Shown here in pieces: positions 2,778 through 57,659 of a stretch of 64,000 nt of DNA; within the stretch, counting starts at the first letter, position 1, and every line of letters begins with the position of its first letter. This stretch comes from a candidate division WOR-3 bacterium. GTDB lineage: Bacteria > Hydrothermota > Tepidihabitantia > Tepidihabitantales > Tepidihabitantaceae. Under the pieces are notes generated by a model. It ran no database searches. It was given only the letters and a program-made list of their open reading frames with translations, and was not told where the DNA came from. A program made the translations under genes and the position numbers. The stretch is from the NCBI GenBank assembly GCA_016867815.1, contig VGIR01000003.1, positions 2,495 through 66,494 on the forward strand, in the 5' to 3' direction.

Positions 2778-2899
2778 CTGGAGGGTCTCGCTTTCCTGGG
2801 TACGGTTTTGCCTTTGCAGACTACTGCCCGCCGGGTCCGGTTCCAGTCACGGGCGCAGGCAGAGCGCGGGAAGTATAGCAGAAAGTAGGAAGTGGTCAA

Positions 2900-3142
2900 G
2901 AGGTCGAGAGGTCGAGGGATAGAGGGAGAGAGGGATAGAGGGATAGAGGGATAGAGGGATAGAGTGTTCGGACCCTTGGTTCTCTTCGTGATTTCGTGCT
3001 TTCGTGGCAGACTGGTCTGGGTTCTCCCGGTGCCTTGGTGTCTTGGTGGTTGAGTCGGCATGAGGGATCAAGGGATAGAGGGATCGAGGGAGAGAGGGAC
3101 AAAGGGATAGAGGGACAAAGGGATGGAGGGATAGAGGGATCG
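2900..3142. repeat. two arrays of 9-bp tandem repeat GGGATAGAG (about 7 and 9 units) flanking CTTCGTG and CTTGGTG heptamer mini-arrays
   Basis: gggatagagggagagagggatagagggatagagggatagag at 2919-2966 and gggatcaagggatagagggatcgagggagagagggacaaagggatagag... at 3062-3142. Confidence 0.95.
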
Positions 3143-3279
3143 CTGGGAAGGGTTCCAGGGTTCGAGGGGTCCAGTGGCCGACCCAGCCGGAGGTCGTGGA
3201 CCGGACATGCAGCCGGGTAACGATCCGTCGTTCATCGTTCTTGACCCCAGCGGTCCCTGTCGGACAGTGCGTTCATCGT

Positions 3280-4893: not shown

Positions 4894-7053
4894 ATGAAGA
4901 TCTCAGCAGGGCTGATGGCCCTTTTTGTCTTGGCCGTGGCGATGCCGATGCCGGATGCCGGAGCGACTCCGCCCAACGCCGTCCCGTTCGCAACCGCGCG
5001 CCAGGTCGCGCTTAACCGGGCGGCGATCGAGTACCCGGGCGCCCGGCTCGGCACCGTTGTCCCATACGTCGATGAGGACGGGAACGCTGTCGCCTGGATG
5101 TTCCACTTCCGGGTTGACGGGAAGGAGTTCCCGAGATACGAACAGGTCGCGGCCGACGTCCAGGCCGAGCGGCAGACCCTGACCGTGAACACCGATCTGT
5201 CACGCTGGCGATCGCAGTACAGCCACATTCTCGTGTCGGCGCGCCGCGACCGGGCACCGGTAATCCGCTTCGGCTACGGCACTTCCGAGTACTACGCGCT
5301 GGCATCCAGGGCGCAGTCGCGGGCAAGGCAGATGCTCGGACCTGATGCCGGATTGACGCGCATCTACTATGTCAGTCCCACCACCTATCTCGAGTTCACC
5401 AACCGGGCGGGCAAGACGGCCGTGTTTAGCCAGCACTTCGAGCGGACTTGGGATTCGCGTGAGGAGTTCGCCGGTTACGTGACGGAGGCGCGGGCGCAGC
5501 TCCGGCAGCAATACCCGGGCGAGGATGCCGCGGCCGCCAAGCACCATAGCGCACTCTGGGACCGGGCGCTCGACGGCAAACTGGGCAGGTTCAGCGAGGT
5601 ATTCGTGCCGAACATCGGGCTCGCCCCTTTCTATGACTGGAGCTACGGGTGCACGCCGACCTCGGGCGCGATGGTCTGCGGCTACGTGGACCGGGTTCAG
5701 AAGTCGGGCCGGCTGGTAGATTGGTACGTCCAACGCTACGACGGGGTCGAGGGAGAGAGCGACTGGCAAATCCCCAACGTGCAGCGGGAATGCGCCATCG
5801 AGATGAACACCGACACGACGTTCGGCGGTACAAGTATCCTCTTCATTGCCAACGGTCTTCTCCAGGTCGGGTACAACAACGACTACAACGGCTGGGCAGT
5901 GACGAACGTCACGGGCCGGACCAGCAACGACTGGGCCTGGTCTACTATCACCTCGCAGATCAACGCCGGCCACGCGATGATCTGGTCACCCCTGTGGGAG
6001 GCACATTCGCTGGCCTGCTTCGGGTACCGCACCGAGGACAAGTACGTGTACGTCCACAATACCTGGTGGATGCCGGCTGAGTGGTGGGCGCATTCGGGCA
6101 GCGACGTATCTCATGTTGCTGCCGTCACCCCCGACGCCGGAGATGCACGCAACATCCGGCTGACCTATCCGCTGGGTGATACGTTCTACAATTCGACCGG
6201 CCGCGGCGAGGTGCTATACGTCGGCGATACCGTACGCATCACCTGGGAGAGCGGCACGCCGGGCACGAGCGTCGATATCGATGTCTCGACCGATGGCGGG
6301 GCGACCTGGCAGGTCGCGGCCGCCGATGTGGCCGACAGCGGCGCATATCACTGGTACATACCGCCCTCCATTCCCACCTGCGATTCGGTCCGGCTGCGGG
6401 TAGGTCAGTACAGTGGGTCGACTCTGACCTCGGCCGACGGCACGTTCGGTTGTTTCCACGTGCTGAAGGAGCCGGTGCCGCCGCCGCAGATTGCCCCGCC
6501 CAACGGGTTGCCGATACCCTCGGACAACCTCCCGGTTGTACTTGAGGTCGACTCGGTCCGGGCGGCCTGTGACAGCATTCACTTCAAGCTGGTGCAGGGA
6601 CTCGACACCCTGCTGGAGCAGAACGGCACCACGGCTCATTTCCTATTGCCCGATTCCATCCTCAAGTTGAACAAGATCTACAAGTGGATAGTGCGGGGGC
6701 GGAACCAGTGGGGATGGGGCAAGTGGGGCACGCCGTGGTCGTTCCGCGTTGTGGCAGCCGGCGCTCAGGAAGAGAAGCCGTCCGCCGTTCTGCCTGTGTT
6801 CTTGGTGCCGGCAGTGAGTCGGTTGGGCGCCGGCAGCGTCCAGTTCGACGTGCGCATGGCAGCGCCGGGCAGCAAGTTGATTGTGTATGACGCATTCGGT
6901 AGCCTCATCCGCGAACTCGTGGTGGCGCAACCGAGTCGGCTGGCCTGGGACATGACCGATGCGAGCGGCCGGAAGCTGGCGGCCGGGCTCTACTTCGCCC
7001 GCCTTGCCGGTGGCGCGAACCAGCCGAGCGCGAAGCTGGTCCTCCTCGACTGA
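4894..7053 (+). CDS. secreted peptidase C39-like domain protein with Ig-like/GPI-anchored-type beta-sandwich domains and T9SS C-terminal sorting domain
   Basis: start taken at MKISAGL (signal peptide); motif YGCTPTSGAMVCGY resembles peptidase_C39-like Cys site; C-terminus ...LIVYDAFGSLIRELV...GLYFARL...KLVLLD matches Por secretion tail / FlgD-Ig-like pattern. Confidence 0.6.
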   Translation: MKISAGLMALFVLAVAMPMPDAGATPPNAVPFATARQVALNRAAIEYPGARLGTVVPYVDEDGNAVAWMFHFRVDGKEFPRYEQVAADVQAERQTLTVNTDLSRWRSQYSHILVSARRDRAPVIRFGYGTSEYYALASRAQSRARQMLGPDAGLTRIYYVSPTTYLEFTNRAGKTAVFSQHFERTWDSREEFAGYVTEARAQLRQQYPGEDAAAAKHHSALWDRALDGKLGRFSEVFVPNIGLAPFYDWSYGCTPTSGAMVCGYVDRVQKSGRLVDWYVQRYDGVEGESDWQIPNVQRECAIEMNTDTTFGGTSILFIANGLLQVGYNNDYNGWAVTNVTGRTSNDWAWSTITSQINAGHAMIWSPLWEAHSLACFGYRTEDKYVYVHNTWWMPAEWWAHSGSDVSHVAAVTPDAGDARNIRLTYPLGDTFYNSTGRGEVLYVGDTVRITWESGTPGTSVDIDVSTDGGATWQVAAADVADSGAYHWYIPPSIPTCDSVRLRVGQYSGSTLTSADGTFGCFHVLKEPVPPPQIAPPNGLPIPSDNLPVVLEVDSVRAACDSIHFKLVQGLDTLLEQNGTTAHFLLPDSILKLNKIYKWIVRGRNQWGWGKWGTPWSFRVVAAGAQEEKPSAVLPVFLVPAVSRLGAGSVQFDVRMAAPGSKLIVYDAFGSLIRELVVAQPSRLAWDMTDASGRKLAAGLYFARLAGGANQPSAKLVLLD

Positions 7054-26012: not shown

Positions 26013-26930
26013 ATGAGCAAGGTGTTTGCGGAGACATCAACTCCGCCGGTTGCTGGTAAAGCCGTGTGCTGTGTCATTGGTCCAGTGGGCGACCCTGGCA
26101 CGCCCGTCCGCCTGCGTGCCGACTTGGTCTTCGAGCGAATCTTCTCGCCTGCTGCGGATCATTGCGGGTTCTCCGCGTGGCGCGCGGACCGCAGCGTTCT
26201 CCCCGGTCGCATACCTGACGAAGTGCTCCACCACCTGTATGACGACCCCGTCGTGATAGCAGACCTGACGGGGAACAACGGCAGTGTGGCCTACGAACTT
26301 GCAGTCCGCGACTTCTACGGCAAGCCGACCGTTGCTGTCATCGACGAGGGACAGCGCATTCCGTTCTACCAGTCTCAAGTCCGCGTGATCAGGATCAGTC
26401 ATCTGACTGAAGAGGCGATCGAGCGTAGCGTTGCCTCCGTCTCAGCATCGATTGGTGACGCAGTGCGTGCCGCTGTCGTGGCAGACAGCCCGTTCGCAGA
26501 GGCGGTCAGGCTGCGCGACACCCGGCTGAGCGGAGCCGAGGCCAAAGGCGTGTACCTCTATTGCGTAGACCTCGACCTTCATCGCCAGATTCGGGATTTT
26601 CTTGCAGGCCACGGGGTGGCGATTGTCGCGAGGGATGAGCGGCAGGGTCGATTGGGGGGCACTCCAGCGCTGATGCGTGAGATTTGCTGCCAGGCGGCCG
26701 CGGCCGTTGTCGTAATGCGCCGCGACGCGAGAGGTCAGCCGCTGTCTGACACTGACTACGTGCTGGGGGCGGCACAGGCAGCATTCGGCATGGACCGCGT
26801 GATCGCCATGCTGGAGGTGGGCGCAGGATGGCAGGGCCACCTCGCTGGGTACTGGCATGGCTTCCGCAGAGACCCGCTCGACCTCAGCAGCCTCAGGCTT
26901 CGCCTGCTGGAGATGGGACTGGTGAAGTGA
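26013..26930 (+). CDS. hypothetical protein with two tandem nucleoside 2-deoxyribosyltransferase-like (NDT/TIR-like Rossmann) repeats
   Basis: N-half VIADLTGNNGSVAYELAVRDFYGKPTVAVID resembles NDT signature (D..G.n.G...E.G.A...GKP); C-half DYVLGAAQAAFGMDRVIAM is a degenerate second copy lacking the Glu. Confidence 0.5.
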   Translation: MSKVFAETSTPPVAGKAVCCVIGPVGDPGTPVRLRADLVFERIFSPAADHCGFSAWRADRSVLPGRIPDEVLHHLYDDPVVIADLTGNNGSVAYELAVRDFYGKPTVAVIDEGQRIPFYQSQVRVIRISHLTEEAIERSVASVSASIGDAVRAAVVADSPFAEAVRLRDTRLSGAEAKGVYLYCVDLDLHRQIRDFLAGHGVAIVARDERQGRLGGTPALMREICCQAAAAVVVMRRDARGQPLSDTDYVLGAAQAAFGMDRVIAMLEVGAGWQGHLAGYWHGFRRDPLDLSSLRLRLLEMGLVK

Positions 26931-26979
26931 GGCGGGCCATCCGGTCGCCCGCCGCTATCGTTCGTTCGTTAGCGACTCA

Positions 26980-27095
26980 CCGCGCCGCTTCGACGCCGGC
27001 ATGCCCGGCCCCGACGACAATCACATCATACGTCTGCTTGCGCTTCATGGACTCGCTGATTCTAGGAGTTCGCAGGCCTGATTCAGACCGCCGCG
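26980..27095. repeat. degenerate duplicate copy 3 of mnmG promoter + 5' codons (possibly the ancestral pre-insertion copy)
   Basis: reverse strand encodes [22 protein letters not shown]; closest to copy 2. Confidence 0.8.
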
Positions 27096-27099
27096 CGGC

Positions 27100-27128
27100 T
27101 TGACTTCTCGGAGAATCTGATTCACAAT
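27100..27128 (+). promoter_or_regulatory. putative promoter (TTGACT N17 CACAAT)
   Basis: cTTGACTtctcggagaatctgattCACAATgcc; the track ATG at 27127 lies inside the -10 box. Confidence 0.4.
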
Positions 27129-27237
27129 GCCGAGTGGCAAGATGCTACGCTTCTTCCGGCTGCTGGTCTGTGCCAGAGTCGGAAATGTGCGAATGGCGGG
27201 CATCCCACACTGCCGCAACCGTGGGAGGCGCCAGACG

Positions 27238-27645
27238 ATGAGACGCGTATACAGATTGAACGGTGCACAGGTGGGAGTCCTCTGCGGAATCACGGCAGTA
27301 GTGTCATTCCTGATAATCTGGGGTGGTACCGGGTCTACGCAGTTCTACAAGTATCAGACTGAGGACGACGTGTGGACAGCAACCGTTCTCGCCAGCTCCG
27401 TCGGTGGCTTCAAGGGGTTGTGGGACTCGGGGACCCGCAACTACTGCACGTATCTCGACTGTAGCGACGGACAGACACGCAAGTTCTACCTCACGCGCTC
27501 CATCAACCATTACTTTCTGGATTCCGAGAAGCACCCTCTTGAACGAATCGCGCTTGTGGTCGTGCTGGTTGGAGTCATGCTCATCTACACGCTGGGATGG
27601 GCAGTCCAACGCAGACTGCGGGATGACTCAGTTGTTGCTAGGTGA
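27238..27645 (+). CDS. hypothetical small membrane protein (start uncertain; track start 27127 rejected)
   Basis: two TM helices; alternative starts 27142/27193. Confidence 0.4.
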   Translation: MRRVYRLNGAQVGVLCGITAVVSFLIIWGGTGSTQFYKYQTEDDVWTATVLASSVGGFKGLWDSGTRNYCTYLDCSDGQTRKFYLTRSINHYFLDSEKHPLERIALVVVLVGVMLIYTLGWAVQRRLRDDSVVAR

Positions 27646-27671
27646 AGCGTGTTATCAAGGAGGCAGTTCCT

Positions 27672-28199
27672 ATGAAGTCACGTCACAGCGGCCCGGCTAT
27701 TCTGGTGCTGGTTCTTGTATCGCTGGCGGGAGGGCAGAGCCTAACGGAGGTACTGACCGTGGAGGTCGAAGGACAGACCTATGGCGCGGCGTGGCTCGGT
27801 CCGGGTGCTTTTGGCGGCGTGACGGGCCTCGTCTCGACTGGGCAGACCAAGATATGGAAGGGATTTCGGGGCGGCCTGCCTGTATCCGAGGCCGAGTTCT
27901 ACCGCACGGCTGGCTACAACGACATCGCGGAGAAGGCCGAGTCGAGAAAGGGCACAAGCGACTGCCTGACGTGGGGCGGACTCGGCACATGCATTGCAGG
28001 ACTCGCATTGCTGGTCGTAGCCGCCGTCAAGGTGGGTGAATCGGGTGAGGGTCAGCCGGGCCTAGCTATCGCCGGAGTGGGCGGCGCTCTCGGAGGACTG
28101 ACCGTGGAGTTGATAGGTGTCTCGATGCGGGGTCATCTGACGCCAGCCAGCTTCGCGGTCCGCGTCGCCGAGGAATACAACGATCGCCTCAGGCGGTAG
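27672..28199 (+). CDS. hypothetical secreted/membrane glycine-rich protein
   Basis: signal peptide AILVLVLVSLAGG, Gly-rich C-terminal TM segments. Confidence 0.45.
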   Translation: MKSRHSGPAILVLVLVSLAGGQSLTEVLTVEVEGQTYGAAWLGPGAFGGVTGLVSTGQTKIWKGFRGGLPVSEAEFYRTAGYNDIAEKAESRKGTSDCLTWGGLGTCIAGLALLVVAAVKVGESGEGQPGLAIAGVGGALGGLTVELIGVSMRGHLTPASFAVRVAEEYNDRLRR

Positions 28200-28215
28200 G
28201 TAGGCTGGACTGGCA

Positions 28216-28836
28216 ATGACCTCAGACACCGGGTACTGGCTCTGCAGTGCCGTCGCGCAGTCCTTTGCTGCCCTAACCGCGCTGACCGGCCTCTTCGCAG
28301 TGTACAAGCTGCAGACGCTTCGAGGGAACAAAGAGGGTATCCTCTATCGGTTCTTGATCGAACTCGAGAAGACCCGTGCAGAGCTCAACAGACTCGCGCA
28401 GGGTGTTGCGCGTCAGTGGATCGACTCGGTCCCCGATGCCGTTGTTCCCATCACGGGTGAGCACGGATGGAAACAAGTCGTGAAGTCCTACCGGGACGAG
28501 TATGAGGTCCGCCTCGGCGAGGTGGCTAGGGGATGCGGGCCGTCTAATGAGGAGCAGTGGGTCAGCAACAGGCGGGAGTTCTTCAGCGAGTTGATCCGGC
28601 AGCATGACAACACAACCAACCAGCAGAACGGCTGCAGCAAATGGGCGAAGGCAATGACGCTGGCTGACGGAATTATCACCTTGTTCTCGCTTGTCCTGAT
28701 CCTGGGAGTGCCCTATCTTGGGTCTACGCTGCCCGTCAGCTTGGTCGTGCTGCTTGTTCTTGCGGGCTTCGCTCTCGGACTGACTCTCTTCGCGTGTGTG
28801 AAGATACTTGCCATCGGAGAGTTGACGGACTCGTGA
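28216..28836 (+). CDS. hypothetical membrane protein
   Basis: N-terminal TM, soluble middle, two C-terminal TM helices. Confidence 0.5.
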   Translation: MTSDTGYWLCSAVAQSFAALTALTGLFAVYKLQTLRGNKEGILYRFLIELEKTRAELNRLAQGVARQWIDSVPDAVVPITGEHGWKQVVKSYRDEYEVRLGEVARGCGPSNEEQWVSNRREFFSELIRQHDNTTNQQNGCSKWAKAMTLADGIITLFSLVLILGVPYLGSTLPVSLVVLLVLAGFALGLTLFACVKILAIGELTDS

Positions 28837-29048
28837 CCAGGTAGCCACCAGTTCCGCTGCTGCCCGACTTCACACGCTGCACGCAGCTCAGTTGCCAGTG
28901 GTCCGATTGCGCCCCGGATCTCTGGTGACACCCGGGCGGGCACCGCGCTTGGGGATGTTGTTCTCGGAGAGCGATGACCAATTCTGCGAGCCGGTGGAGG
29001 AGAGCCTGGTCGATGTGCGGTTGCTGGTGACCGTTCAGGTTTTCCGCC

Positions 29049-29110
29049 CAAGCGCAAGCTCAAGCACAAGCCGGGCAAGAGCCGCAAGCCTCAAGCCACA
29101 AGCTTCAAGC
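29049..29110. repeat. CAAGCC-type heptamer tandem array
   Basis: caagcgcaagctcaagcacaagccgggcaagagccgcaagcctcaagccacaagcttcaagc. Confidence 0.9.
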
Positions 29111-29164
29111 TATCCGGAAGGTCGTTCTCGTCGAGTGACGTCGGGCTCTGGAAAGCATCGAGCA

Positions 29165-29465
29165 AGCGACTCTCCCGACAGCTCTCCGAGTAGTCCTCCC
29201 AACTCCCCTCCGAATTGCCCGGCGGGCTGCTTTCCGGATTATCTGCTGAGCTACTCTCCGGACAAACTGCGGAGCAGTCCGCGGAACTGCCTTCCCCGCA
29301 GTTCGCCGAGGAGCTCGCCGAGTTCCTCTCCGGATAGCTCTCCGAGTAGCTGACCGAATAGCTGTCCGGGCAGTTCTCCAGATTTCCTTCCGGATAGCCT
29401 GCGGAGCAACCTGCCGGACTGCTTTCCGGGCAGCTTGCCGAACTGCCTCCCGAACAACCTGGGGG
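29165..29465. repeat. degenerate 12-bp minisatellite (consensus CCGGAnAGCTnT, about 25 units), locus 1
   Basis: ccggatagctct ccgagtagctga ccgaatagctgt ccgggcagttct ... read directly. Confidence 0.9.
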
Positions 29466-29600
29466 GCGGGGTAGGGGAGGAGAGTGAATGCCCAATAACC
29501 AATTACTAATGAAGAAGTTAGAACAACTCGGGACTTGCCTCCAGGAGGACATATAGGAAACTGGACGCGTGCGACCGGCCTCAAGTGAGGGGCCGGTTTC
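29466..29600. repeat. conserved ~130-bp flank of the 12-bp minisatellite (second copy at 57489-57640)
   Basis: gggaggagagtgaatgcccaataaccaattactaatgaagaagttagaacaactcgggacttgcctccaggaggacatataggaaactgg is about 75% identical to 57489-57600. Confidence 0.8.
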
Positions 29601-29653
29601 GATGCACGGACCAGGCTGTCAGGTCCGAGCGTCAGGACGCCGGCGAGGCGCGG

Positions 29654-29682
29654 TGCTTGCCAGCGGGGGAGAGGTGACTAGA
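29654..29682 (+). promoter_or_regulatory. putative xylA promoter (TTGCCA N16 TAGAAT) followed by RBS AAGGAG
   Basis: gcTTGCCAgcgggggagaggtgacTAGAATgag ... cctAAGGAGtcgtaaccATG. Confidence 0.45.
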
Positions 29683-29720
29683 ATGAGCACTGGTACAAAG
29701 CCTCCTAAGGAGTCGTAACC

Positions 29721-30920
29721 ATGCCTCTTCTTGATCTCCGGCCGCAAGCAGTGCGCAGGACGCCCGCACAAATGGTCGAACACCTGAAGTCATTCAACCT
29801 CGACCTGAAGTTCTCTGCCGGGATCTGGTTCTTCTCGCCGTCGGAAAGCCGGTTCCATAAGAAGCATGGGCCTGACCTCTCGATCGAGCAGCGGCTGGAG
29901 ATTGCGCGGGGACTGAAGGAGTACGGTCTCGCCGGGCTGGAGGCGCACTACCCGAACGAGATCAACGAGGAGAATGAGAAGCTGTGGCGCGACTTCTGTG
30001 CCGACTCCGGCATGCGGCTGGTGACGGTTGTGCCGCTCCTATTCCGCAGTCCCAAGTTCGAGTTCGGTTCGCTCTCCAGCCCGTTGCCCGAAGCGCGCAA
30101 GGCAGCGATTGAAGTCACGCGGCGCGCGTTTGAGATGAACTGCCGGATGGATACCGATTTCTGCGTTGTCTGGCCCGGGATTGATGGGTATGAGAATCCG
30201 TTTGGCATGGACTTCGCCGCGATGCGCGACCGGTTCGCGGACGGCCTGGCCGAAGCTATGGACTGCGTGCCCGGGGTGCGGGTCGCGTTCGAGCCCAAGC
30301 CGTACGAGCCGCGCGGCCGAATCATCTTCGGTACGACGCCGGAGGGGCTGCTGCTCTGCCACATGGTAGAGGAGAGGCTGCAGAACCCGGAGAACCGGCG
30401 GCTCTTGGTCGAAGGCCATGCGCTCGTCGGGATGAATCCCGAGGTGGGGCATGCGCTGATGGCGTATGAAGACCTGCCGTACGCGTATAGCTGGCCACTA
30501 TCCGAAGGCAGGCTCTGTCACATGCACCTGAACAGCCAACCGCTCGGCAACTTCGACCAGGACCTGAACGTGGGGACTGTGGCGCCGGAACAGATTGAAG
30601 CGCTGCTCTATGTGCTGAAGATGCACGGCTATCAAGGCTGGTTCGGCATCGACATCAATCCCGAGCGCATGCCGGTGGACATGGGCCTGCGCATCTCGAT
30701 GGACGCGCTGCGCGCCGCCAATGACAGGATCACTGATCTTGACCACGAGTCAGTGGTCTTCGCAGTCAACCACCCGGACAAGGCGAGAGGGTGGCTTGAG
30801 GGATACCTCGTGCGCGCAAGGGCTCCACATCCGGAACGCCTGGCGCAGCTTCTACCCGTCGGGCCACAAGCCTCAAGCCACAAGCCGCAAGCTTCGGACC
30901 GGACGGGAGGATCGGAATGA
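29721..30920 (+). CDS. xylA: xylose isomerase (class I)
   Basis: AFEPKPYEPRG, NPEVGHALMA, HMHLNSQ...DQDL match XylA catalytic/metal-binding blocks; C-terminal about 15 aa are translated heptamer array. Confidence 0.75.
   Translation: MPLLDLRPQAVRRTPAQMVEHLKSFNLDLKFSAGIWFFSPSESRFHKKHGPDLSIEQRLEIARGLKEYGLAGLEAHYPNEINEENEKLWRDFCADSGMRLVTVVPLLFRSPKFEFGSLSSPLPEARKAAIEVTRRAFEMNCRMDTDFCVVWPGIDGYENPFGMDFAAMRDRFADGLAEAMDCVPGVRVAFEPKPYEPRGRIIFGTTPEGLLLCHMVEERLQNPENRRLLVEGHALVGMNPEVGHALMAYEDLPYAYSWPLSEGRLCHMHLNSQPLGNFDQDLNVGTVAPEQIEALLYVLKMHGYQGWFGIDINPERMPVDMGLRISMDALRAANDRITDLDHESVVFAVNHPDKARGWLEGYLVRARAPHPERLAQLLPVGPQASSHKPQASDRTGGSE
30863..30895. repeat. CAAGCC heptamer array at xylA 3' end
   Basis: ccacaagcctcaagccacaagccgcaagcttcgg. 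Confidence 0.9.
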
Positions 30921-31273
30921 GGAAGGTGGACGACTACGAAGTATTCAAGCGTGCACATCAACTGACTCTCGACATCTATCGGCTGACGAAGCGCTTTCCC
31001 AAGGACGAGCTGTACTGCCTCACCTCGCAGATGAGGCGCGCTGCATACTCGATACCCACCAACTTGAAGGAAGGCAGCACTGGGACCGAAACGGAGTTCT
31101 TTAGATACGTCCGAATCAGCCTGGGCAGCAAGGAGGAGCTTGCCTATCAGGTTCGGCTCGCCCGCGACCTGGGATACACCTCTGAGATAGACGCTAGGAA
31201 GCTGTCGTCAGAGATCAGCGAGATCGGCGGCATGCTGTTCGGTCTGCTCCGCAAGCGGGGGACCGGAGCTTGA
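30917..31273 (+). CDS. four-helix-bundle protein (23S rRNA intervening-sequence protein family)
   Basis: 118 aa; YEVFKRAHQLTLDIYRLTKRFPK...LYCLTSQMRRAAYSIPTNLKEG... characteristic of TIGR02436-type proteins. Confidence 0.75.
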   Translation: MRKVDDYEVFKRAHQLTLDIYRLTKRFPKDELYCLTSQMRRAAYSIPTNLKEGSTGTETEFFRYVRISLGSKEELAYQVRLARDLGYTSEIDARKLSSEISEIGGMLFGLLRKRGTGA

Positions 31274-31310
31274 AGCTTGAGGCTTGGGGCTTGAGGCCTC
31301 CGTTGCTTGC
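31267..31310. repeat. GGCTTGA heptamer array (inverted relative to 30863-30895)
   Basis: gcttgaagcttgaggcttggggcttgaggcc. Confidence 0.9.
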
Positions 31311-35557: not shown

Positions 35558-37583
35558 CAGGGCTCAGGCTAAAGCCCAAGCCCGCGCAGAGAAGGTTTCA
35601 AGCCGCAAGCCTCAAGCTTCAGGCTCAGGCACTGGACCACAAGACCACTTGGCCACTGGACCACTTCCCTCTCTTCTCTACCCCGATTCCCGGCCGTGGA
35701 CGCGGTGGTGGTGGTTCAATGTCGAACTCCGCGAGGAGGATATCAGGGCACAACTCGAATGGGTGAAAGGGAACGGGTTCGGAGGAGTTGAGCTGGCGTT
35801 CATCTATCCTCTGCCCGGGCAGAAGCGCGGGCCGGACTTCCTGAGTCCGGAATGGTCGCGGAAGGTCGCGCACGCCAAGCGTTGCTGCGAGTCATTGGGT
35901 CTGGGTTGCGACTTCACGTTCGGTACCCTGTGGCCGTTCGGGGGAACCTTCGTATCTGAGGCCGACGCATCTCAGAGATACGACGGGCCGTCACCCCAGG
36001 AACTTGGGCGTTCCTGGGAGTTGCCCGAGGAAGGTAGAATACTCAATCACCTTGACCGACAGGCATTCGGCCGGTACGCAGAGCGGATGGGCGGCGCGCT
36101 CCGCGACGCACTCGACGGCACGAAGTCGGCGCTGTTCTGCGACTCATTTGAGGTGGAGACGGAAGGGCTATGGACACCCGGTTTCGACGATCGGTTCCGG
36201 GAGCTGTTCGGGTACGACGTACTGCCGTTCATGCAGAAGATCGACGAGCATCCCGACGTGCGCTACGACTATCGCAAGCTCATCGCCGACTACATTCTGC
36301 GTGAGTTCTACGAACCGTTCACTGAATGCAGCCACAGGCATTATTCATTCACCCGTGTGCAGTGTCATGGTGCGCCATGCGACCTGCTGGCCGCGTACGC
36401 GGCGTCGGACGTGCCCGAGTCGGAAGCTATCCTCTTTGATCCCGAGTTCAGCCGGATTCCGGCCTCTTCGGCCGCGCTGTCAGGCAGGCCGATCGTATCA
36501 GCCGAAGCGTTCACTTGCCTCTACGGTTGGGTTCCGTATCCCGGACCGGGGCAGCAACAGGGCGAGGAGCAGGTTGCCGACTTGAAACTGCTGGCGGACG
36601 CGCTGTTTGCCAACGGCGTGAACCACGTCTTCTGGCATGGGATGCCTTATCAGCAGCAAGCCCCAAGCCACAAGCCGCAAGCAGGAGCCAGGAAGGCGCA
36701 AGCCCAAGCTCAAGCGCAAGCAGTGCAGCGGAACTGGTTCTATGCGAGCGTGCATGTGGGGCCGGATAGCTCCTTTGCGGATGGGTTACTCGATTTCAAT
36801 GCCTACATGGAGAGAGCCTGTGGAGCGATGAGGCTGGGACGACCCTATTCCGACGTGGCCGTGTATCTGCCGCTCGAAGACCAATGGATGAAGGGCGAGG
36901 TGCCAAAGGAACAGCAGAAGCCAAGCGCCAGGTATCATTGGGAGATGCACTGCCTGCGTCCGCCGGCGGAGTTGGCAGGACGGCAGCCGCTCTGGGTGTC
37001 GGCGTCATTCCTGGAGCGGGCATGGGTCGAGGATGGGGTGCTCCGGGTTGGAGACGCACGCTTCAGTCTTCTCTATGTTGACTGTGAGTGGGTTGACGGT
37101 GACGGCCTCCGCCAGGTGGCGCGTCTGGCAAAGGCCGGTTTGCCGGTGTGTCTCAAGCGGCTGCCCAAGAGGCCCGGCAGGGCTGTGGACAAGCGGGCGG
37201 GGAAGGAGTATCAGTCAACCCTGGAGGCGCTGACCAGAACCGACAACGTGAGCAGCGACCTGGGGAGTCTGACGCAGGAGCCACCGCTGTTGTCCGGCCG
37301 CGATGCACCCGACTTCTGGTGCAGGGCAGTTGACGACGAGTTGCTGTTCTTCTTCGGGCATCCGGCCTCGCGTGGTCTGACCTACCCGATGAAGCACGGA
37401 CAGGCAGCTCAGGCGGGGCAGACCGGCAGAGACCTGAAGTTCAACCTCGGCGACAGCAGCCCGGCATTCGAACTATCTGTCGAGTTCGGGCAGTTTGAGT
37501 CCGTGCTGCTTCGCGCATCCCGAACGGGTCGAGTCGAACGCCTCGATCTCAACTACACGCCGTCCTTCCCGTTCACGGGCTGA
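35544..37583 (+). CDS. putative glycoside hydrolase-like protein in rhamnose cluster (start uncertain; contains in-frame heptamer-encoded insertion)
   Basis: 679-aa ORF; N-terminal about 30 aa and an internal segment (APSHKPQAGARKAQAQAQAQAV) are translations of CAAGCC heptamer arrays. Confidence 0.45.
   Translation: MAGSDRAQAKAQARAEKVSSRKPQASGSGTGPQDHLATGPLPSLLYPDSRPWTRWWWFNVELREEDIRAQLEWVKGNGFGGVELAFIYPLPGQKRGPDFLSPEWSRKVAHAKRCCESLGLGCDFTFGTLWPFGGTFVSEADASQRYDGPSPQELGRSWELPEEGRILNHLDRQAFGRYAERMGGALRDALDGTKSALFCDSFEVETEGLWTPGFDDRFRELFGYDVLPFMQKIDEHPDVRYDYRKLIADYILREFYEPFTECSHRHYSFTRVQCHGAPCDLLAAYAASDVPESEAILFDPEFSRIPASSAALSGRPIVSAEAFTCLYGWVPYPGPGQQQGEEQVADLKLLADALFANGVNHVFWHGMPYQQQAPSHKPQAGARKAQAQAQAQAVQRNWFYASVHVGPDSSFADGLLDFNAYMERACGAMRLGRPYSDVAVYLPLEDQWMKGEVPKEQQKPSARYHWEMHCLRPPAELAGRQPLWVSASFLERAWVEDGVLRVGDARFSLLYVDCEWVDGDGLRQVARLAKAGLPVCLKRLPKRPGRAVDKRAGKEYQSTLEALTRTDNVSSDLGSLTQEPPLLSGRDAPDFWCRAVDDELLFFFGHPASRGLTYPMKHGQAAQAGQTGRDLKFNLGDSSPAFELSVEFGQFESVLLRASRTGRVERLDLNYTPSFPFTG
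35560..35635. repeat. CAAGCC-type heptamer array
   Basis: ggctaaagcccaagcccgcgcagagaaggtttcaagccgcaagcctcaagcttcaggctcaggc. Confidence 0.9.
36655..36725. repeat. CAAGCC-type heptamer array in frame inside CDS 35544-37583
   Basis: cagcaagccccaagccacaagccgcaagcaggagccaggaaggcgcaagcccaagctcaagcgcaagcag. Confidence 0.9.
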
Positions 37584-49280: not shown

Positions 49281-51542
49281 ATGAACAGACTGGTGGCTGT
49301 TCTGCTGGGCGCGGCCGTTGCGACTGCGGCATTCGGCCGTGAGCCGAGGTTAGAGGAGCATCTCGCGGTGCGGGAGAGTCTGTCGCGGGTGCATCCGAGG
49401 ATGAGGGCGAGGTGGCTCAAGGAGCGCGGGGTTGAAGACCCGTACTACACGAGCGTCAGGATGCCGGCGACTGAGAGTTCGGGACTCGAGCTAATCGGAC
49501 GTTGGTCATACGGGCCGTCGTATGACGTTGACGGCAGGACCACTCCGAGCGAGACGCTCGTTGCGCTGGCGCGCGGCTCGGGCGTGAGCCTGCTCAGGTT
49601 CTCAAGGCGGGATTCCCTTTCAATCGAGCTTCTCTCGGACATCAATGCCGAGGGGCTGATGTGCCGCGTGAAGGTCGCGGGCACGCTTCTCTACGTCGGC
49701 TCGCGGAAGGGGCTTGAAATCTACAACATCGCCGACGAGCAGAATCCGATGAGGCTCTCGTGGACGCCACTGCCGCTCAACGACTTTGCCCTTCAGGATT
49801 CGCTCGTTTACACCATCAGCGGCTACTATTCCGACGGTGGCGATGACGACTCGTTTCGTATCTACAACGTCTCGAATCCAGCCAATCCGGTCTTCCGCGG
49901 AGCCTGCCGCGACTCAGGCTACCTGGTCTCGGTGGCAGGCAACACGGCGTTCATTGGCGACCGTTGGGGTCTCTACGTCATCGACGTCACCAATCCCGCG
50001 AGTCCGCACCGAATCGGCTCCTGGGGTAGCGCAATCGAGCAGGTGGAGGTCAGAGGGCATCTCTGCTACGTCACGACTTTCAACCCGAACGTGCCGGGCG
50101 ACATCACGTTCCACGTCCTTGACGTTGCCGTTCCGTCGCTGCCATACCAGATTGGCTCGCTGGACTCTGCCGGCGGCAACGATGTCTTCCTCGTCGATAC
50201 GCTGGCGTTTGGAGCAGGCGAGAGCGACTTCAACAGGATGACTATCGTGTCGATAGCAGATTCGACCAGACCCCGCCTGCTAGGCTCTGCCGGAAGGCCC
50301 GGCTGGGGCTATGGCGTCTGGACCAACGGGCTAGCCCAGACTGCCTTCGTTGGTTCCCACTGGACGGGCTTGCAGATATATGACATCGGGAACACGTCGC
50401 TGCCGGTTCGCGACACCTTCCTGCTGGATGCCGACCAAGCCTTGGACGTCTACATCGACAACGACAGGGCCTACGTGGCGAACCAGATGTCCGGACTGAA
50501 GATACTCGACGTCACCGACCCGGCGAGGCCCACCACTGCTGGTTCCTATGACACGGCCGGGCAGAGGCCGTTCATGAGCTCGGTAGTCGCGCGCGACTCT
50601 CTCGCGTTCGTGGATTGGTACGCGGTGCCCGTCTTCAGGGTGATGGAGGTAAGCGATCCATCGCGCCCTTTGATGCTCGGTGGGGTCGACGTGTTCAATC
50701 CGCCCGAGGACATGGTCCTGCGTGACAGCTTCGTTTACTGCGCCGAAATGAACCGCTTCCAGATTGTCAACGTCGCCCGGCCAAGAGAGCCGGTGCTGGT
50801 GGGGAGCTGCAACACGCAGGAGCAAGCGTATGGTCTGTGCGTCGCAGATTCGCTGGCATACGTGGCTAACTACCCGTTTGCCATCATCAACGTGAAGCAA
50901 CCATCGAATCCAAGTGTCGTCGGCACGATTTCCCGCGGTGCGTGGAATGGGACGGTTCGCGACACGTTTCTGTTCCTGTCATCGGGGAGCATTCTTGTCT
51001 ACAGCGTCGCCGACCCAAGCCAACCTCGGCTGCTGGACTCGCTCAGCGTCGGGGCAATCACGTTTTGGGTCGAGGCGGTCGGCTCGCTGCTGTACACCAA
51101 CAACACCGATGGCGTAAGAGTGGTAGACGCAAGCGACGTTCACAACATGCGGGTCCGTGGCTATGCGACTCTTCCATACTCAGTAGGAAGGTTGAGCTAC
51201 GCGTCGCCGCACCTTTATGTCGCGTGCGGGGAGGCCGGTGTTTGCATCTTCGAGTCAACACAGGTTGCCGTCAGCGAAGAACGACACGCCGTTCCGAGAG
51301 GTGGAGGGCTGTTCGTCAAGCCCAATCCGGCTAGGGGCGTAGCCTTGCTCCTGGGAGCGCAGGGTCTCTCGTATCCCGTTGTCGTCCGAGATGTTGCCGG
51401 GAGGGTCGTGCCCCGCGCAGTCGCAAGCCACGAGACCAACGGCGGTTTGACGCTCGACCTGACGGGCGTCCCACCCGGAGTGTACTTTGTCGAGGTTAAG
51501 ACAAGAGAAGAGGCAGCAAGAGTCAAGTTCGTAAGACAATAG
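49281..51542 (+). CDS. secreted LVIVD-repeat beta-propeller protein with T9SS C-terminal sorting domain
   Basis: signal peptide; repeated ...Y.A.G..GL.I.DV[ST]NP..P motifs; tail ...FVKPNPARG...PPGVYFVEVKTREEAARVKFVRQ. Confidence 0.7.
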   Translation: MNRLVAVLLGAAVATAAFGREPRLEEHLAVRESLSRVHPRMRARWLKERGVEDPYYTSVRMPATESSGLELIGRWSYGPSYDVDGRTTPSETLVALARGSGVSLLRFSRRDSLSIELLSDINAEGLMCRVKVAGTLLYVGSRKGLEIYNIADEQNPMRLSWTPLPLNDFALQDSLVYTISGYYSDGGDDDSFRIYNVSNPANPVFRGACRDSGYLVSVAGNTAFIGDRWGLYVIDVTNPASPHRIGSWGSAIEQVEVRGHLCYVTTFNPNVPGDITFHVLDVAVPSLPYQIGSLDSAGGNDVFLVDTLAFGAGESDFNRMTIVSIADSTRPRLLGSAGRPGWGYGVWTNGLAQTAFVGSHWTGLQIYDIGNTSLPVRDTFLLDADQALDVYIDNDRAYVANQMSGLKILDVTDPARPTTAGSYDTAGQRPFMSSVVARDSLAFVDWYAVPVFRVMEVSDPSRPLMLGGVDVFNPPEDMVLRDSFVYCAEMNRFQIVNVARPREPVLVGSCNTQEQAYGLCVADSLAYVANYPFAIINVKQPSNPSVVGTISRGAWNGTVRDTFLFLSSGSILVYSVADPSQPRLLDSLSVGAITFWVEAVGSLLYTNNTDGVRVVDASDVHNMRVRGYATLPYSVGRLSYASPHLYVACGEAGVCIFESTQVAVSEERHAVPRGGGLFVKPNPARGVALLLGAQGLSYPVVVRDVAGRVVPRAVASHETNGGLTLDLTGVPPGVYFVEVKTREEAARVKFVRQ

Positions 51543-53855: not shown

Positions 53856-53898
53856 GCGCAGCGCGCGTGGCTTGCGCTTGAACTTGGGCTTGCGCTAG
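53855..53898. repeat. GCTTGCG-type heptamer array
   Basis: gcgcgtggcttgcgcttgaacttgggcttgcgc. Confidence 0.85.
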
Positions 53899-55625: not shown

Positions 55626-57083
55626 TCAGCGCTGCAGGACGACGCGTGCGGTGGCGTGCTCACCAGAGATTTCGCAGCGGATGAAGTAGGCGCCGGCGGG
55701 CAAGTCCGAAGTGGAAAGGGGAAATGACGAAGTCGAGACCTCACGCGAGAGAACCATTCGACCCTGACTGTCGTACATGCGCAGCGTAAGGGGCTTGGAG
55801 CTTGAGGTCGTGGGCGTGAAGCTGACTCTCGTCGCTCCACGGCACGGGTTCGGCTCGCAGGTGAGGGAGAGCGCGGGGGCCCGAGTTGGATTTGCCTTCG
55901 GCTCTGCTACCGCGACGTTGCCCAGCGAATCGGTCTTGATGAGGTAGACGTCATTCTCGACTACGCCGAACGACCGTGTGAGGCCGGTGACAACATAGCC
56001 GCCATCGGCGGTCTGCTGGACCGAACGACCTTCGTCGTAGGGCCCGTCGCCGAAGGTCCTTGTCCACATCGCGCTGCCGTCGGCCCCGGTCTTGATGAGC
56101 CATGCATCGGATGGATATGAACCGTTAGAGGCGGTCAGGCCGCCGACGATGTAGCCGCCATCGGTGGTCTGCTGGACCGAGAAGCCTTGGTCCACGCTCC
56201 GTCCGCCAAAGGTCCTCGTCCACTGCGTATCGCCGCGCGCGTCGGTCTTGATCAGGTAGACATCGCTGCTCTCTGCGCCAAAGGAGGTAGTGGGGGCCAC
56301 GATGATGTAGCCGGTGTCAGTGGTCTGCTGGATGGAACGGCCTCCTTCGCTGCCTGTGCTGCCGTAGGTCCTGGTCCACAGTGTGTCGCCGCCGGCGTCA
56401 GTCTTGACCAAGTACACGTCGTAGCTACTCGGAGAGCGGGCGTTGCCTGCGATGATGTAGCCGTCGTCGACTGTCTGCTGGACCGAGTAGCCGTTGTCGT
56501 TGCCCGTGCCGCCATAGGTTCTGGTCCACATTGTGTCGCCGTGAATGTCGGTCTTTACGAGGTAGACATCGGCCTGTCCCATGCCAAAGGATCTCGTGTA
56601 TCCAGTGATGATGCAGCCGCCGTCGGCAGTCACTTGGACAGAAGGACCACAGTCGTTGGAGTCGCCGCCGAAGGTCTTAGTCCAGAGCGTGTCGCCGTTG
56701 GAGTTGGTCCTAATGAGGTAGACGTCCTCGTTGCCCGCACCGAAGGAGGATGTCTTTCCTGAGATGATGTAGCCGCTATCGGTCGTCTGTCGGACGGAGA
56801 AGCCAAAGTCGTTCGAGTCGCCGCCGAAGGTCCTAGTCCAGAGCGTGTCGCCGAGGGAGTCGGTCTTGATGAGGTATACGTCTGTGTTGCTTCCCTCGAA
56901 GATGGAGGTTTGTCCAGCAATGATGTAGCCGCCGTCGGCGGTCTGTCGGACCGAGAAGCCGCGGTCGTCGCCTATTCCGCCGTAGGTGCGCTGGAAGGTG
57001 ATTTGGGCGGGGAGGAATGAGGGCAAGAGGATTGCGGCCAAGGCGGCCAGGGCCAGAGCGGAAGAGAACCGGTTACGATACAT
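55626..57083 (-). CDS. secreted repeat protein (about 10 copies of a ~47-aa TFGG...DVYLIKTD..GDTLWT repeat) with T9SS C-terminal sorting domain
   Basis: signal peptide starting MYRNRFSSALALAA; tail ...LRMYDSQGRMV...GAYFIRCEISGEHATARVVLQR. Confidence 0.7.
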   Translation of the reverse strand: MYRNRFSSALALAALAAILLPSFLPAQITFQRTYGGIGDDRGFSVRQTADGGYIIAGQTSIFEGSNTDVYLIKTDSLGDTLWTRTFGGDSNDFGFSVRQTTDSGYIISGKTSSFGAGNEDVYLIRTNSNGDTLWTKTFGGDSNDCGPSVQVTADGGCIITGYTRSFGMGQADVYLVKTDIHGDTMWTRTYGGTGNDNGYSVQQTVDDGYIIAGNARSPSSYDVYLVKTDAGGDTLWTRTYGSTGSEGGRSIQQTTDTGYIIVAPTTSFGAESSDVYLIKTDARGDTQWTRTFGGRSVDQGFSVQQTTDGGYIVGGLTASNGSYPSDAWLIKTGADGSAMWTRTFGDGPYDEGRSVQQTADGGYVVTGLTRSFGVVENDVYLIKTDSLGNVAVAEPKANPTRAPALSLTCEPNPCRGATRVSFTPTTSSSKPLTLRMYDSQGRMVLSREVSTSSFPLSTSDLPAGAYFIRCEISGEHATARVVLQR

Positions 57084-57194
57084 GACGACCTCCTGAGACC
57101 ATTTCGTGAGCGTCTGAGATGATAGGCTCGGGGCTGGGCTTGTCAAATGCGCGGGCGCGAACCTACGGTCGTGGGTTGCCGCGGAGGTTGATAC

Positions 57195-57488
57195 CTACCG
57201 GACAGCTTTCTGAATAGCTCGGGACATTGGTCTCCGGATTGCCTGGCAGGTTGCTCTCTGGGCTCGCTTCCGGGCGATTCGCCCGGCAGCCTGTGGAGCT
57301 ATCCGCGGGGCAGTTCTGCCCGGAGCTCTCCGGGCAGTTCGCCCTGCTCCTATCCGGACAGCCTTCCGAATAGCTGACCGAACAGCAGTCCGGATAGCTC
57401 TCCGGATTCCTCACCGGATAGCCTGCGGAGCAGTCTCCCGAACTGCTCGCGGGGCAGCCTCGAGAACAGCTCGCAGAATAGCCTGGGG
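57195..57488. repeat. degenerate 12-bp minisatellite, locus 2 (same family and orientation as 29165-29465)
   Basis: ccggacagcttt ctgaatagctcg ... ccggatagctct ccggattcctca ccggatagcctg. Confidence 0.9.
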
Positions 57489-57640
57489 GACGGGACAGGG
57501 GAGAAAGGAGAATGACGAATAACTAATTGCTAATGGGGAAGTTAGGAAACCGGAAGGCTCGACCGGAGGAGGACATATAGGAAACTGGGAGGGTGCGGCC
57601 AGCCTCAAATGGGGTGTCGGATTGCGCCTGCTTCCGAAGG
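57489..57640. repeat. conserved flank, locus 2
   Basis: gggagaaaggagaatgacgaataactaattgctaatggggaagttaggaaaccgg...ggaggacatataggaaactgg. Confidence 0.8.
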
Positions 57641-57659
57641 AAGTGGGGAGCCTCTTGAT

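Follow-up and report, generated by a model that had tools for sequence, protein, structure and literature searches.

A composite non-coding element with a fixed number of 12-base units at two loci of a candidate division WOR-3 contig

Modular interspersed repeats of bacteria include BOX (boxA-boxB(n)-boxC), BIME/REP, ERIC, and the cyanobacterial STRR heptamer arrays. An element that can be compared with these families is present twice, at 29138-29630 and 57162-57650, in a stretch of 64,000 nucleotides of contig VGIR01000003.1 (assembly GCA_016867815.1), which is referred to here as the window. Both stretches are copies of one composite element that, like the known families, is multi-copy, non-coding, and intergenic, often located just past stop codons, and modular, with an internal tandem part, conserved end modules, and mosaic copies. 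The element differs from these families in that its unit number is fixed at 27, in that its copies are 50-80 % identical instead of near-identical, and in that it is kept at orthologous loci, with no terminal inverted repeats or linked transposase seen.

Other described systems share one or another of its properties. The protein-sequestering small RNAs (sRNAs) CsrB/RsmZ and CrcZ carry reiterated motifs, and the element likewise has many short, regularly spaced motif copies in one non-coding stretch. Unlike these sRNAs, it has no conserved GGA or A-rich motif, no promoter or terminator of its own, and no Rfam match, and its phasing is strictly 12.0 nt. Centromere-like repeat arrays, such as parC of R1 and tubC (12-bp repeats), resemble it as tandem, partly symmetric sites of 11-12 bp next to promoter-like sequence, whereas the element has 27 units instead of 7-10, occurs in several chromosomal copies, and has no partition genes nearby. 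The RNA repeats of type III toxin-antitoxin systems are 34-45 nt long and are located upstream of an endoribonuclease toxin gene; membership in this class was rejected because the unit of the element is 12 nt long and the downstream genes differ between loci. Rho utilization (rut) sites have been defined operationally by an excess of C over G with C residues spaced 11-13 nt apart along about 78 nt (PMC6407284). The element shares with them the C-over-G bias and the 11-13-nt spacing of C on the strand running on from the upstream gene (PMC6407284) and, with Rho-dependent transcript ends, the position directly after stop codons, followed by stem-loops without U-tracts (PMC13613805). It departs from rut sites in that its array measures 324 nt instead of about 78 nt, is not low in G, and has predicted structure, and in that it belongs to a conserved multi-copy sequence family in which the order relative to the stem-loop is reversed. 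Arrays of tandem interspaced guide RNAs (TIGR) consist of 36-nt units, with two repeats and two variable 9-nt spacers, beside a gene for the Nop-domain protein Tas (PMC12045711). The element is, like TIGR and CRISPR arrays, a short-period tandem array in uncultured prokaryotes; both identities were rejected because its period is 12, spacers are absent, the unit sequences are common to the copies, and no Tas or Cas gene is adjacent. The defining features of each of these nearest systems are either lacking or only partly present. The element is a bacterial dispersed non-coding element, and what sets it apart is that the number of units in its tandem array is conserved.

The two copies in the window, locus 1 (w1) and locus 2 (w2), are both members of a multi-copy, lineage-restricted, non-coding, intergenic element of about 520 bases. 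Its blocks follow one another in the order 27 units of 12 bases, G-rich block, A+T-rich heptamer-phased block, variable segment, 21-mer box, and GC-rich stem-loops. An earlier note on this DNA had described a degenerate 12-bp minisatellite joined to a flank that recurs at locus 2. Both loci are present as described, far beyond chance, and the period of 12 was borne out by lag-12 identity peaks of 0.58 (29161-29521) and 0.53 (57211-57541), with no further lag-12 region in the 64-kb window, as well as by Tandem Repeats Finder, which returned arrays of period 12/24/36 at both loci. The second copy does have the same orientation and arrangement as the first; the likeness is not confined to the flank, since the loci align ungapped over about 430 bases with the array included, at an identity of 0.69-0.70 in the array and 0.68 in the flank. 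What is repeated is the entire array with its conserved flank of 100 bases and about 90 bases of downstream hairpin region, and not a variable array on a conserved flank. The unit consensus CCGRRYWGCYYK is the CCGGAnAGCTnT of the earlier note in another phase. Positions 1 and 2 of the unit are C in 81 and 75 % of the units, and the first three of the 27 units in each copy are degenerate. The parts of the two copies are the following.

29138-29461, plus strand: array of locus 1, 27 x 12 bases, consensus CCGRRYWGCYYK, well-formed units from 29174
29458-29479, plus strand: G-rich block of locus 1, CCTGGGGGGCGGGGTAGGGGAG, nearly invariant across the family
29487-29521, plus strand: A+T-rich block of locus 1, heptamer-phased as AATGCCC AATAACC AATTACT AATGAAG AAGTTAG
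29522-29543, plus strand: most variable flank segment of locus 1, about 22 bases in the family
29544-29564, plus strand: 21-mer box of locus 1, GGAGGACATATAGGAAACTGG, with GGAAACT, similar to the -35 element of an ECF sigma factor, after A/T-rich bases
29575-29627, plus strand: post-box region of locus 1, with the -10-like TCAAG (29581-29585) 18 bases past GGAAACT
29575-29596, plus strand: hairpin of locus 1, CCGGCC...GGCCGG, then TTT
29607-29627, plus strand: second hairpin of locus 1, CGGACC...GGTCCG
57162-57485, plus strand: array of locus 2, 27 x 12 bases that keep the register of locus 1, well-formed from 57198
57482-57503, plus strand: G-rich block of locus 2, CCTGGGGGACGGGACAGGGGAG
57511-57546, plus strand: A+T-rich heptamer-phased block of locus 2, with a mini-open reading frame of only ATG ACG AAT AAC TAA (57512-57526)
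57568-57588, plus strand: 21-mer box of locus 2, GGAGGACATATAGGAAACTGG, an exact match to that of locus 1 where 0 are expected by chance
57589-57648, plus strand: post-box region of locus 2, with TCAAA (57605-57609), then TCGGATTG
57627-57648, plus strand: hairpin of locus 2, CCTGCTTCC-GAA-GGAAGTGGGG

Across the family, the G-rich block has the form CCTGGGGGRCGGGRTAGGGGAG, and the A+T-rich block, of about 35 bases, is made up of AATnnnn heptamers and overlaps a Shine-Dalgarno (SD)-like GGGGAG that is followed, after a gap of 8-10 bases, by an ATG. At locus 1, it overlaps the SD-like GGAGGAG and the ATG (29488) of a mini-open reading frame (ORF) of 22 codons, 29488-29556. The 40 bases 29510-29549, which hold the variable segment, are 55 % identical between locus 1 and its ortholog L023. 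The box is followed by about 10 variable bases, the semi-conserved block CCCGCCTCAAATG, TCnGATTC, and a GC-rich hairpin, which lies 40-60 bases past the box in every variant. In five variants, this hairpin is CCCTACTTCC-GAA-GGAAGTAGGG or a near form of it, while in the others an unrelated hairpin-forming sequence takes its place. One locus, L010, has the flank without the array.

Public collections were scanned for the 21-mer box, which yielded three loci in two metagenome-assembled genomes (MAGs) labelled "uncultured bacterium" and 23 metagenome loci; the scan of viral contigs gave no match, nor did plasmid and phage BLAST. Locus L030 was reached via the ORF called on its array and L036/L037 (GCA_002347155.1) via a neighbouring gene, and their boxes read GGAGGACATAAAGGAAACTGG and GGGGGGACATATACTAAACTGG. 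As the boxes of L030 and L036 both keep GGACATA and AAACTGG, the conservation of these two strings is independent of the search probe. About 16-18 distinct variants are known in all, from lake and sediment metagenomes and three MAGs, with at least four in the Lake Tanganyika samples from which the window derives and five in another sample set. Using nhmmer, no diverged copies beyond the known ones were found in the window and about 290 kb of fetched loci. The carriers are probably uncultured bacteria of candidate division WOR-3, the sole taxonomic evidence being a homolog with that label that is 86 % identical to the AP_endonuc_2 protein encoded adjacent to the element.

An alignment of 18 variants over 425 bases was made with MAFFT, and 15 of the 18 are free of insertions and deletions over that entire length. 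The exceptions are L018, which equals L002 minus exactly one 12-base unit, L020, which is short by 4 bases, and L019, with two 1-base insertions. The arrays of the main family are 0.68-0.81 identical in register and 0.49-0.52 identical when slid by whole units; in register, single units retain an identity of their own. Locus 2 is orthologous to L003, as the two have flanking genes in common whose proteins are 62-66 % identical. The third codon positions of these genes are 0.54-0.58 identical and the arrays 0.49, which is near the out-of-register baseline, while the length of the element is exactly equal, with no base gained or lost. Over that divergence, the lengths of the two adjoining spacers moved from 34 to 208 and from 179 to 102 bases. 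Locus 1 and L023 form another orthologous pair, with AP_endonuc_2 proteins that are 88 % identical, third positions that are 67 % identical, and an intergenic region of about 80 % identity. While the sequence of the array turns over, its period and unit number and the spacing of the blocks stay the same. A fixed length combined with a drifting sequence points to a periodic, length-dependent interaction and not to a sequence-specific one. With length and register conserved, an inert satellite is not supported.

A functionless origin has also been considered in another form, namely that of a dispersed repeat that is spread and homogenised by recombination via the 3' tails of genes for secreted proteins, its uniform length being the result of concerted evolution. 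Copies have been shown to exchange segments by recombination, although part of the evidence could be assembly chimerism. The right half of L011 is that of L023 while its left half is different, L004 and L016 have different arrays and one common right flank at which both contigs break, and L036, an ortholog of locus 1, bears an L013-type flank in two independent assemblies. All three mosaics fit such a repeat, as does the gene-tail remnant that travels with locus 1 (see below). The same holds for the many other 7-, 8-, and 12-base tandem arrays of which the genome is full and for the AP_endonuc_2 locus, at which the element is present in w1, L023, and L036, is absent in L033 and L034/35, and has its place taken by another 12-base array, RGGTCRTCYnnK with about 28 units, in L031/L032, all of them close relatives. 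A repeat of this kind is difficult to reconcile with the absence of any insertion or deletion at 20-50 % divergence between copies, next to spacers that changed several-fold, with an intergenic region at locus 1 that is about 80 % identical where synonymous sites are 67 % identical, and with strongly conserved blocks at fixed spacing, and we consider it unlikely.

Metagenome contigs end within the element or join unlike halves there (L011 as compared with L023/L020, L004 with L016, and the ends of L028/L029), and such broken or mosaic contigs reflect genuine exchange between copies or else chimeric assembly at the repeat. In L032, the replacing array runs from 1631 to 1955 and continues in a degenerate form to about 2270, L031 being alike; the AP_endonuc_2 protein is 85 % identical. 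This array has no conserved flank, no gene was called in that 1.4 kb, and its purine/pyrimidine pattern resembles that of the family unit on the opposite strand.

A miniature inverted-repeat transposable element or another mobile element derived from an insertion sequence is not supported: no transposase, terminal inverted repeats, target-site duplication, or clean empty site was seen in the element loci, the element occupies orthologous positions in diverged genomes, and where it is replaced at its locus, a different array is found instead. The relative L033, which lacks the element, has at 5568-6179 a Y1_Tnp (IS200/IS605-type) transposase gene right after a sugar-kinase gene.

The evidence supports the element being non-coding. 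The ORFs that had been listed in the earlier note do exist, on the minus strand at 29105-29584 and as the mini-ORF MPNNQLLMKKLEQLGTCLQEDI at 29488-29556, which is cut to MTNN followed by a stop in copy 2. From these, the minus strand could be envisaged to encode a protein of tetrapeptide repeats, or the mini-ORF of the plus strand a small peptide. All three minus-strand frames are largely open over the array, the Joint Genome Institute (JGI) called a gene of 68 amino acids at 29251-29457, and an SD-like sequence with ATG is retained in 12 of 14 variants. None of the six frames is, however, open in all copies, and every frame has stops in several variants. The Arg/Ala-rich (A-x-R-x)n frame of the minus strand is interrupted in most other variants, and the frame that starts from the ATG inside the 21-mer box is closed by a TAG that locus 2, L003, and L012 have in common at one position of the flank. 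The length of the mini-ORF is not retained: it amounts to 4, 4, 4, 5, 14, 16, or 22 codons, and the ATG is lacking in L003. The comparisons between copies that had been proposed, of codon periodicity and of frame preservation, revealed no phase bias, with counts of 102:117:112 differences at the three codon phases among pairs above 78 % identity, and pN/pS (the nonsynonymous-to-synonymous ratio) was 0.6-1.07 across all six frames. The G+C content at third codon positions was 0.48-0.65 in the three minus-strand frames of the array, compared with 0.70-0.89 in 13 window genes. When the 83-amino-acid ORF of the array was compared with 5.8 billion proteins, only two relatives came up, both of them unannotated ORFs on such arrays. 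Stops, pN/pS, codon phases, and third-position composition all speak against the coding readings of the earlier note, and either kind of product is very improbable. Among the possibilities that had been left open there (a coding family, a non-coding satellite, or a mobile element), the non-coding nature is supported, and coding, inertness, and mobility are not.

Folding of the array is better than that of shuffled sequences on the two strands (z = -4.4 and -3.8). Together with a family that is multi-copy, of fixed length, and kept at orthologous loci, this would fit a stand-alone non-coding RNA with 27 periodic protein-binding motifs, acting as a sponge or scaffold like CsrB, RsmZ, and CrcZ. 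In the consensus fold of the plus strand, 24 pairs are changed on both sides, as compared with 13.4 ± 2.1 in column shuffles. The minus strand folds equally well, the consensus of the array reaching -42.7 kcal/mol on the plus and -47.7 kcal/mol on the minus strand, as is to be expected with the weak dyad symmetry of the unit (Watson-Crick pairing of about 0.45 at every centre). Because the unit is weakly self-complementary, with a pairing of 0.42-0.49 at every 6-base centre and none preferred, and because a profile hidden Markov model (HMM) of the array matches its own reverse strand (E ~1e-11), the double-sided changes were not taken as a sign of a specific RNA fold. A strand-specific fold of the element is not supported, and a single global hairpin across the array was rejected since all 6-base centres pair equally poorly. 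The flank is almost devoid of consensus structure (-6.5 and -1.5 kcal/mol). Rfam 15 gave 0 matches at the gathering score in the window and five further loci, and only chance-level matches of miRNA type (E >=0.1) when both loci and five related ones were judged by E-value. A sponge for CsrA-type proteins was rejected, as GGA is not conserved in the units and L003 has CCAGA. On neither strand does any aligned position show a conserved sigma-70-type promoter, inside the element or upstream of it, and at several loci only 6-23 bases separate it from a stop codon. With these data, a stand-alone RNA seems improbable. Inspection by eye also led to the rejection of a sigma-54 promoter, the GG-N10-GC spacing not being present, and of a G-quadruplex in the G-rich block, four canonical G-tracts being found in L003 only.

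The double-stranded DNA itself may be what is recognised. The 27 partly palindromic 12-bp sites would in that case be bound by a dimeric or filament-forming protein that controls, or is positioned beside, the promoter-like 21-mer box; precedents of this type are the centromere-like parC and tubC arrays and upstream activating regions. A partial dyad is kept across units that differ in sequence (CCGG/AGCT in the main family, TCTGnCAGA in L003, 0.43 in L032), the profile match to the reverse strand and the different orientation at locus 2 suit a DNA target, all block spacings are fixed, and an array of which the sequence drifts while the pattern stays is expected under co-evolution with a binding protein. 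The dyad is weak, however (0.41-0.48 against a background of about 0.25), 12 bp does not equal the helical repeat of DNA, and the copies have no linked candidate gene for a binding protein. A number of at least 4-5 copies on the chromosome rules against a plasmid partition site, and the neighbouring genes have sigma-70-type promoters of their own outside the element (TTGCCA-16-TAGAAT at 29657-29684 and TTGACA-16-TATCAT at 57146-57119). We doubt that the element is such a DNA array.

The position of the element relative to genes offers a further lead. A gene in the same orientation has its 3' end 6-154 bases ahead of the array in 8 of about 10 independent loci, and the distance from the stop codon to the array is 6-23 bases in L001, L002, L018, and L020. 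The products of these upstream genes are secreted beta-propeller, LVIVD, or BNR proteins that have an APGVYFV...KVVLxR tail in common. The Pfam family Por_Secre_tail matches that tail weakly (E = 0.05 and 0.008), and clearly matches the products of the window genes 55626-57146 and 49281-51542. Neighbouring genes encode metabolic or secreted proteins. Locus 1 is preceded by what is left of a gene of the secreted type.

28990-29138, plus strand: 3'-end remnant of a secreted-protein gene, ending in ...AQAQAQAGQEPQASSHKLQAIRKVVLVE and a stop (29136-29138), with CAAGCYN heptamer repeats

This remnant is homologous to the real gene tails before the element in L001 and L002, and it is 88-98 % identical to its counterpart in the ortholog L023, third positions of the neighbouring gene being 67 % identical. 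As it travels with the element, the dispersed unit includes the 3' end of the gene.

On this basis, it is tentatively proposed, as a possibility that may well not hold, that the element is a cis-acting gene-boundary module that halts or processes transcription arriving from upstream and also holds a conditional promoter directed outward. It would act in cis at the 3' side of genes, mostly those for secreted proteins. The array would, if transcribed at all, be transcribed together with the upstream gene and on the strand that has more C than G; as the array has no promoter of its own and abuts stop codons, co-transcription with that gene is the simplest arrangement. The CC recurring every 12 bases on the C-over-G strand would then serve as a periodic platform for an oligomeric nucleic-acid-binding factor, for which no candidate other than Rho is known. 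The transcript would subsequently be stopped or stabilised by the G-rich block, the A+T-rich block, and the stem-loops, which lack U-tracts, and the 21-mer box, which is similar to promoters of extracytoplasmic function (ECF) sigma factors (A/T-rich sequence, GGAAACT, 18 bases, TCAAA), would restart transcription outward.

Several properties of the element are in line with the proposed boundary module. On the plus strand, direct measurement of four arrays gave C/G ratios of 1.0-1.4 (1.42 at locus 1), and the composition of each variant gives values of up to about 1.6. Arrays downstream of co-oriented genes have the C/G ratio and C spacing of rut sites, which is a weak criterion in a genome of 62 % GC. 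Stem-loops without U-tracts occur at transcript ends in high-GC species (PMC13613805). The consensus for ECF sigma factors of the sigma-E type is GGAACTT, 15-19 bases, and TCAAA, with an A/T-rich upstream region (PMC1312014), and GGAAACT-18 bases-TCAAA, or a form of it with one mismatch, is present in about 11 of 15 variants. The full layout, CATATA-GGAAACT-18 nt-TCAAA, is a resemblance to a promoter only.

Other observations weigh against a gene-boundary role. The arrays are neither G-poor nor unstructured as a rut site is, with a G content of 24-31 % and the folding score given above (z = -4.4). The 27 units amount to about four times what one Rho hexamer needs, and the strict conservation of the length of the 324-base array is left unexplained by a simple Rho loading site. 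In Rho-dependent transcript ends, the stem-loop usually comes before rut (PMC13613805), an order that is reversed here. No second site of the kind of the ECF-like box was found elsewhere in the window, and the genes downstream vary by locus and are convergent in three loci. Hints as to the strand of the hairpin are in conflict, since w2 has G-U pairs on the plus strand while L012 would have a U-G pair only on the minus strand. In addition, locus 2 and L003 have no co-oriented upstream gene, the element being reversed there between two minus-strand genes.

In a more general form, which we regard as rather doubtful, the array would be a length-measured RNA or DNA scaffold for the cooperative binding of an oligomer. 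Combined with the ECF-like box, it would constitute a kind of gene-boundary or regulatory nucleoprotein element that has not been described before and is confined to WOR-3-like bacteria, and arrays with other units, such as that of L032, would be variants of the same principle.

Further repeats and genes were noted around the two loci. CAAGCYN/AGCCACA heptamer repeats are present at or after gene ends at 1607-1638, 29049-29110, 30863-30892, 31267-31294, 35599-35666, and 53870-53896, and once inside a coding region, at 36657-36721 in a Glyco_hydro_106 gene. A string coding for PQASSHKPQAS is found both at the end of the AP_endonuc_2 gene and in the tail remnant upstream of locus 1, and heptamer arrays lie beside 12-base arrays in L003, L006, L020, and L022. 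The divergent intergenic region of 400 bases at 2821-3241, between the genes for a YchF-like GTPase and a class II aminoacyl-tRNA synthetase, is packed with octamers GAGGGATA (runs of about 6 and about 10) and also holds the 7-8-base repeats TTCGTGA, GGTGCCTT, and ACTTCTG. A tandem repeat of 156 bases (2.4 copies) at 56601-56968 in the secreted-protein gene 55626-57146 encodes modules of the form TRTFGG...DVYLIKTD.

A gene for a 23S_rRNA_IVP/bAvd-like four-helix bundle (30917-31273) overlaps the stop of the AP_endonuc_2 gene and is missing in L034/L035, and another such gene is located in L015 (4436-4945), 207 bases downstream of the element. A link with diversity-generating retroelements via this bAvd-like neighbour was rejected, as none of the annotated ORFs was seen to encode a reverse transcriptase and the gene persists in relatives that lack the element. 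Upstream of locus 1, four co-oriented genes (26013-28836) have no Pfam match; the first gave a weak TIR-like match with PADLOC (E = 0.003) and the others resemble membrane proteins, so that the set may be a defence-type cassette.

Almost no non-coding elements have been described for WOR-3 and other uncultured lineages of the Fibrobacteres-Chlorobi-Bacteroidetes (FCB) group. A period and a unit number that are both fixed across paralogs and orthologs, despite drift of the sequence, are rarely seen in bacterial repeats. In practical terms, metagenome assemblies are broken at the element, and it draws spurious gene calls. If it were indeed a platform for Rho or another oligomer, or a scaffold RNA, it would provide a handle on the limits of transcription units around the abundant genes for secreted proteins in these bacteria.

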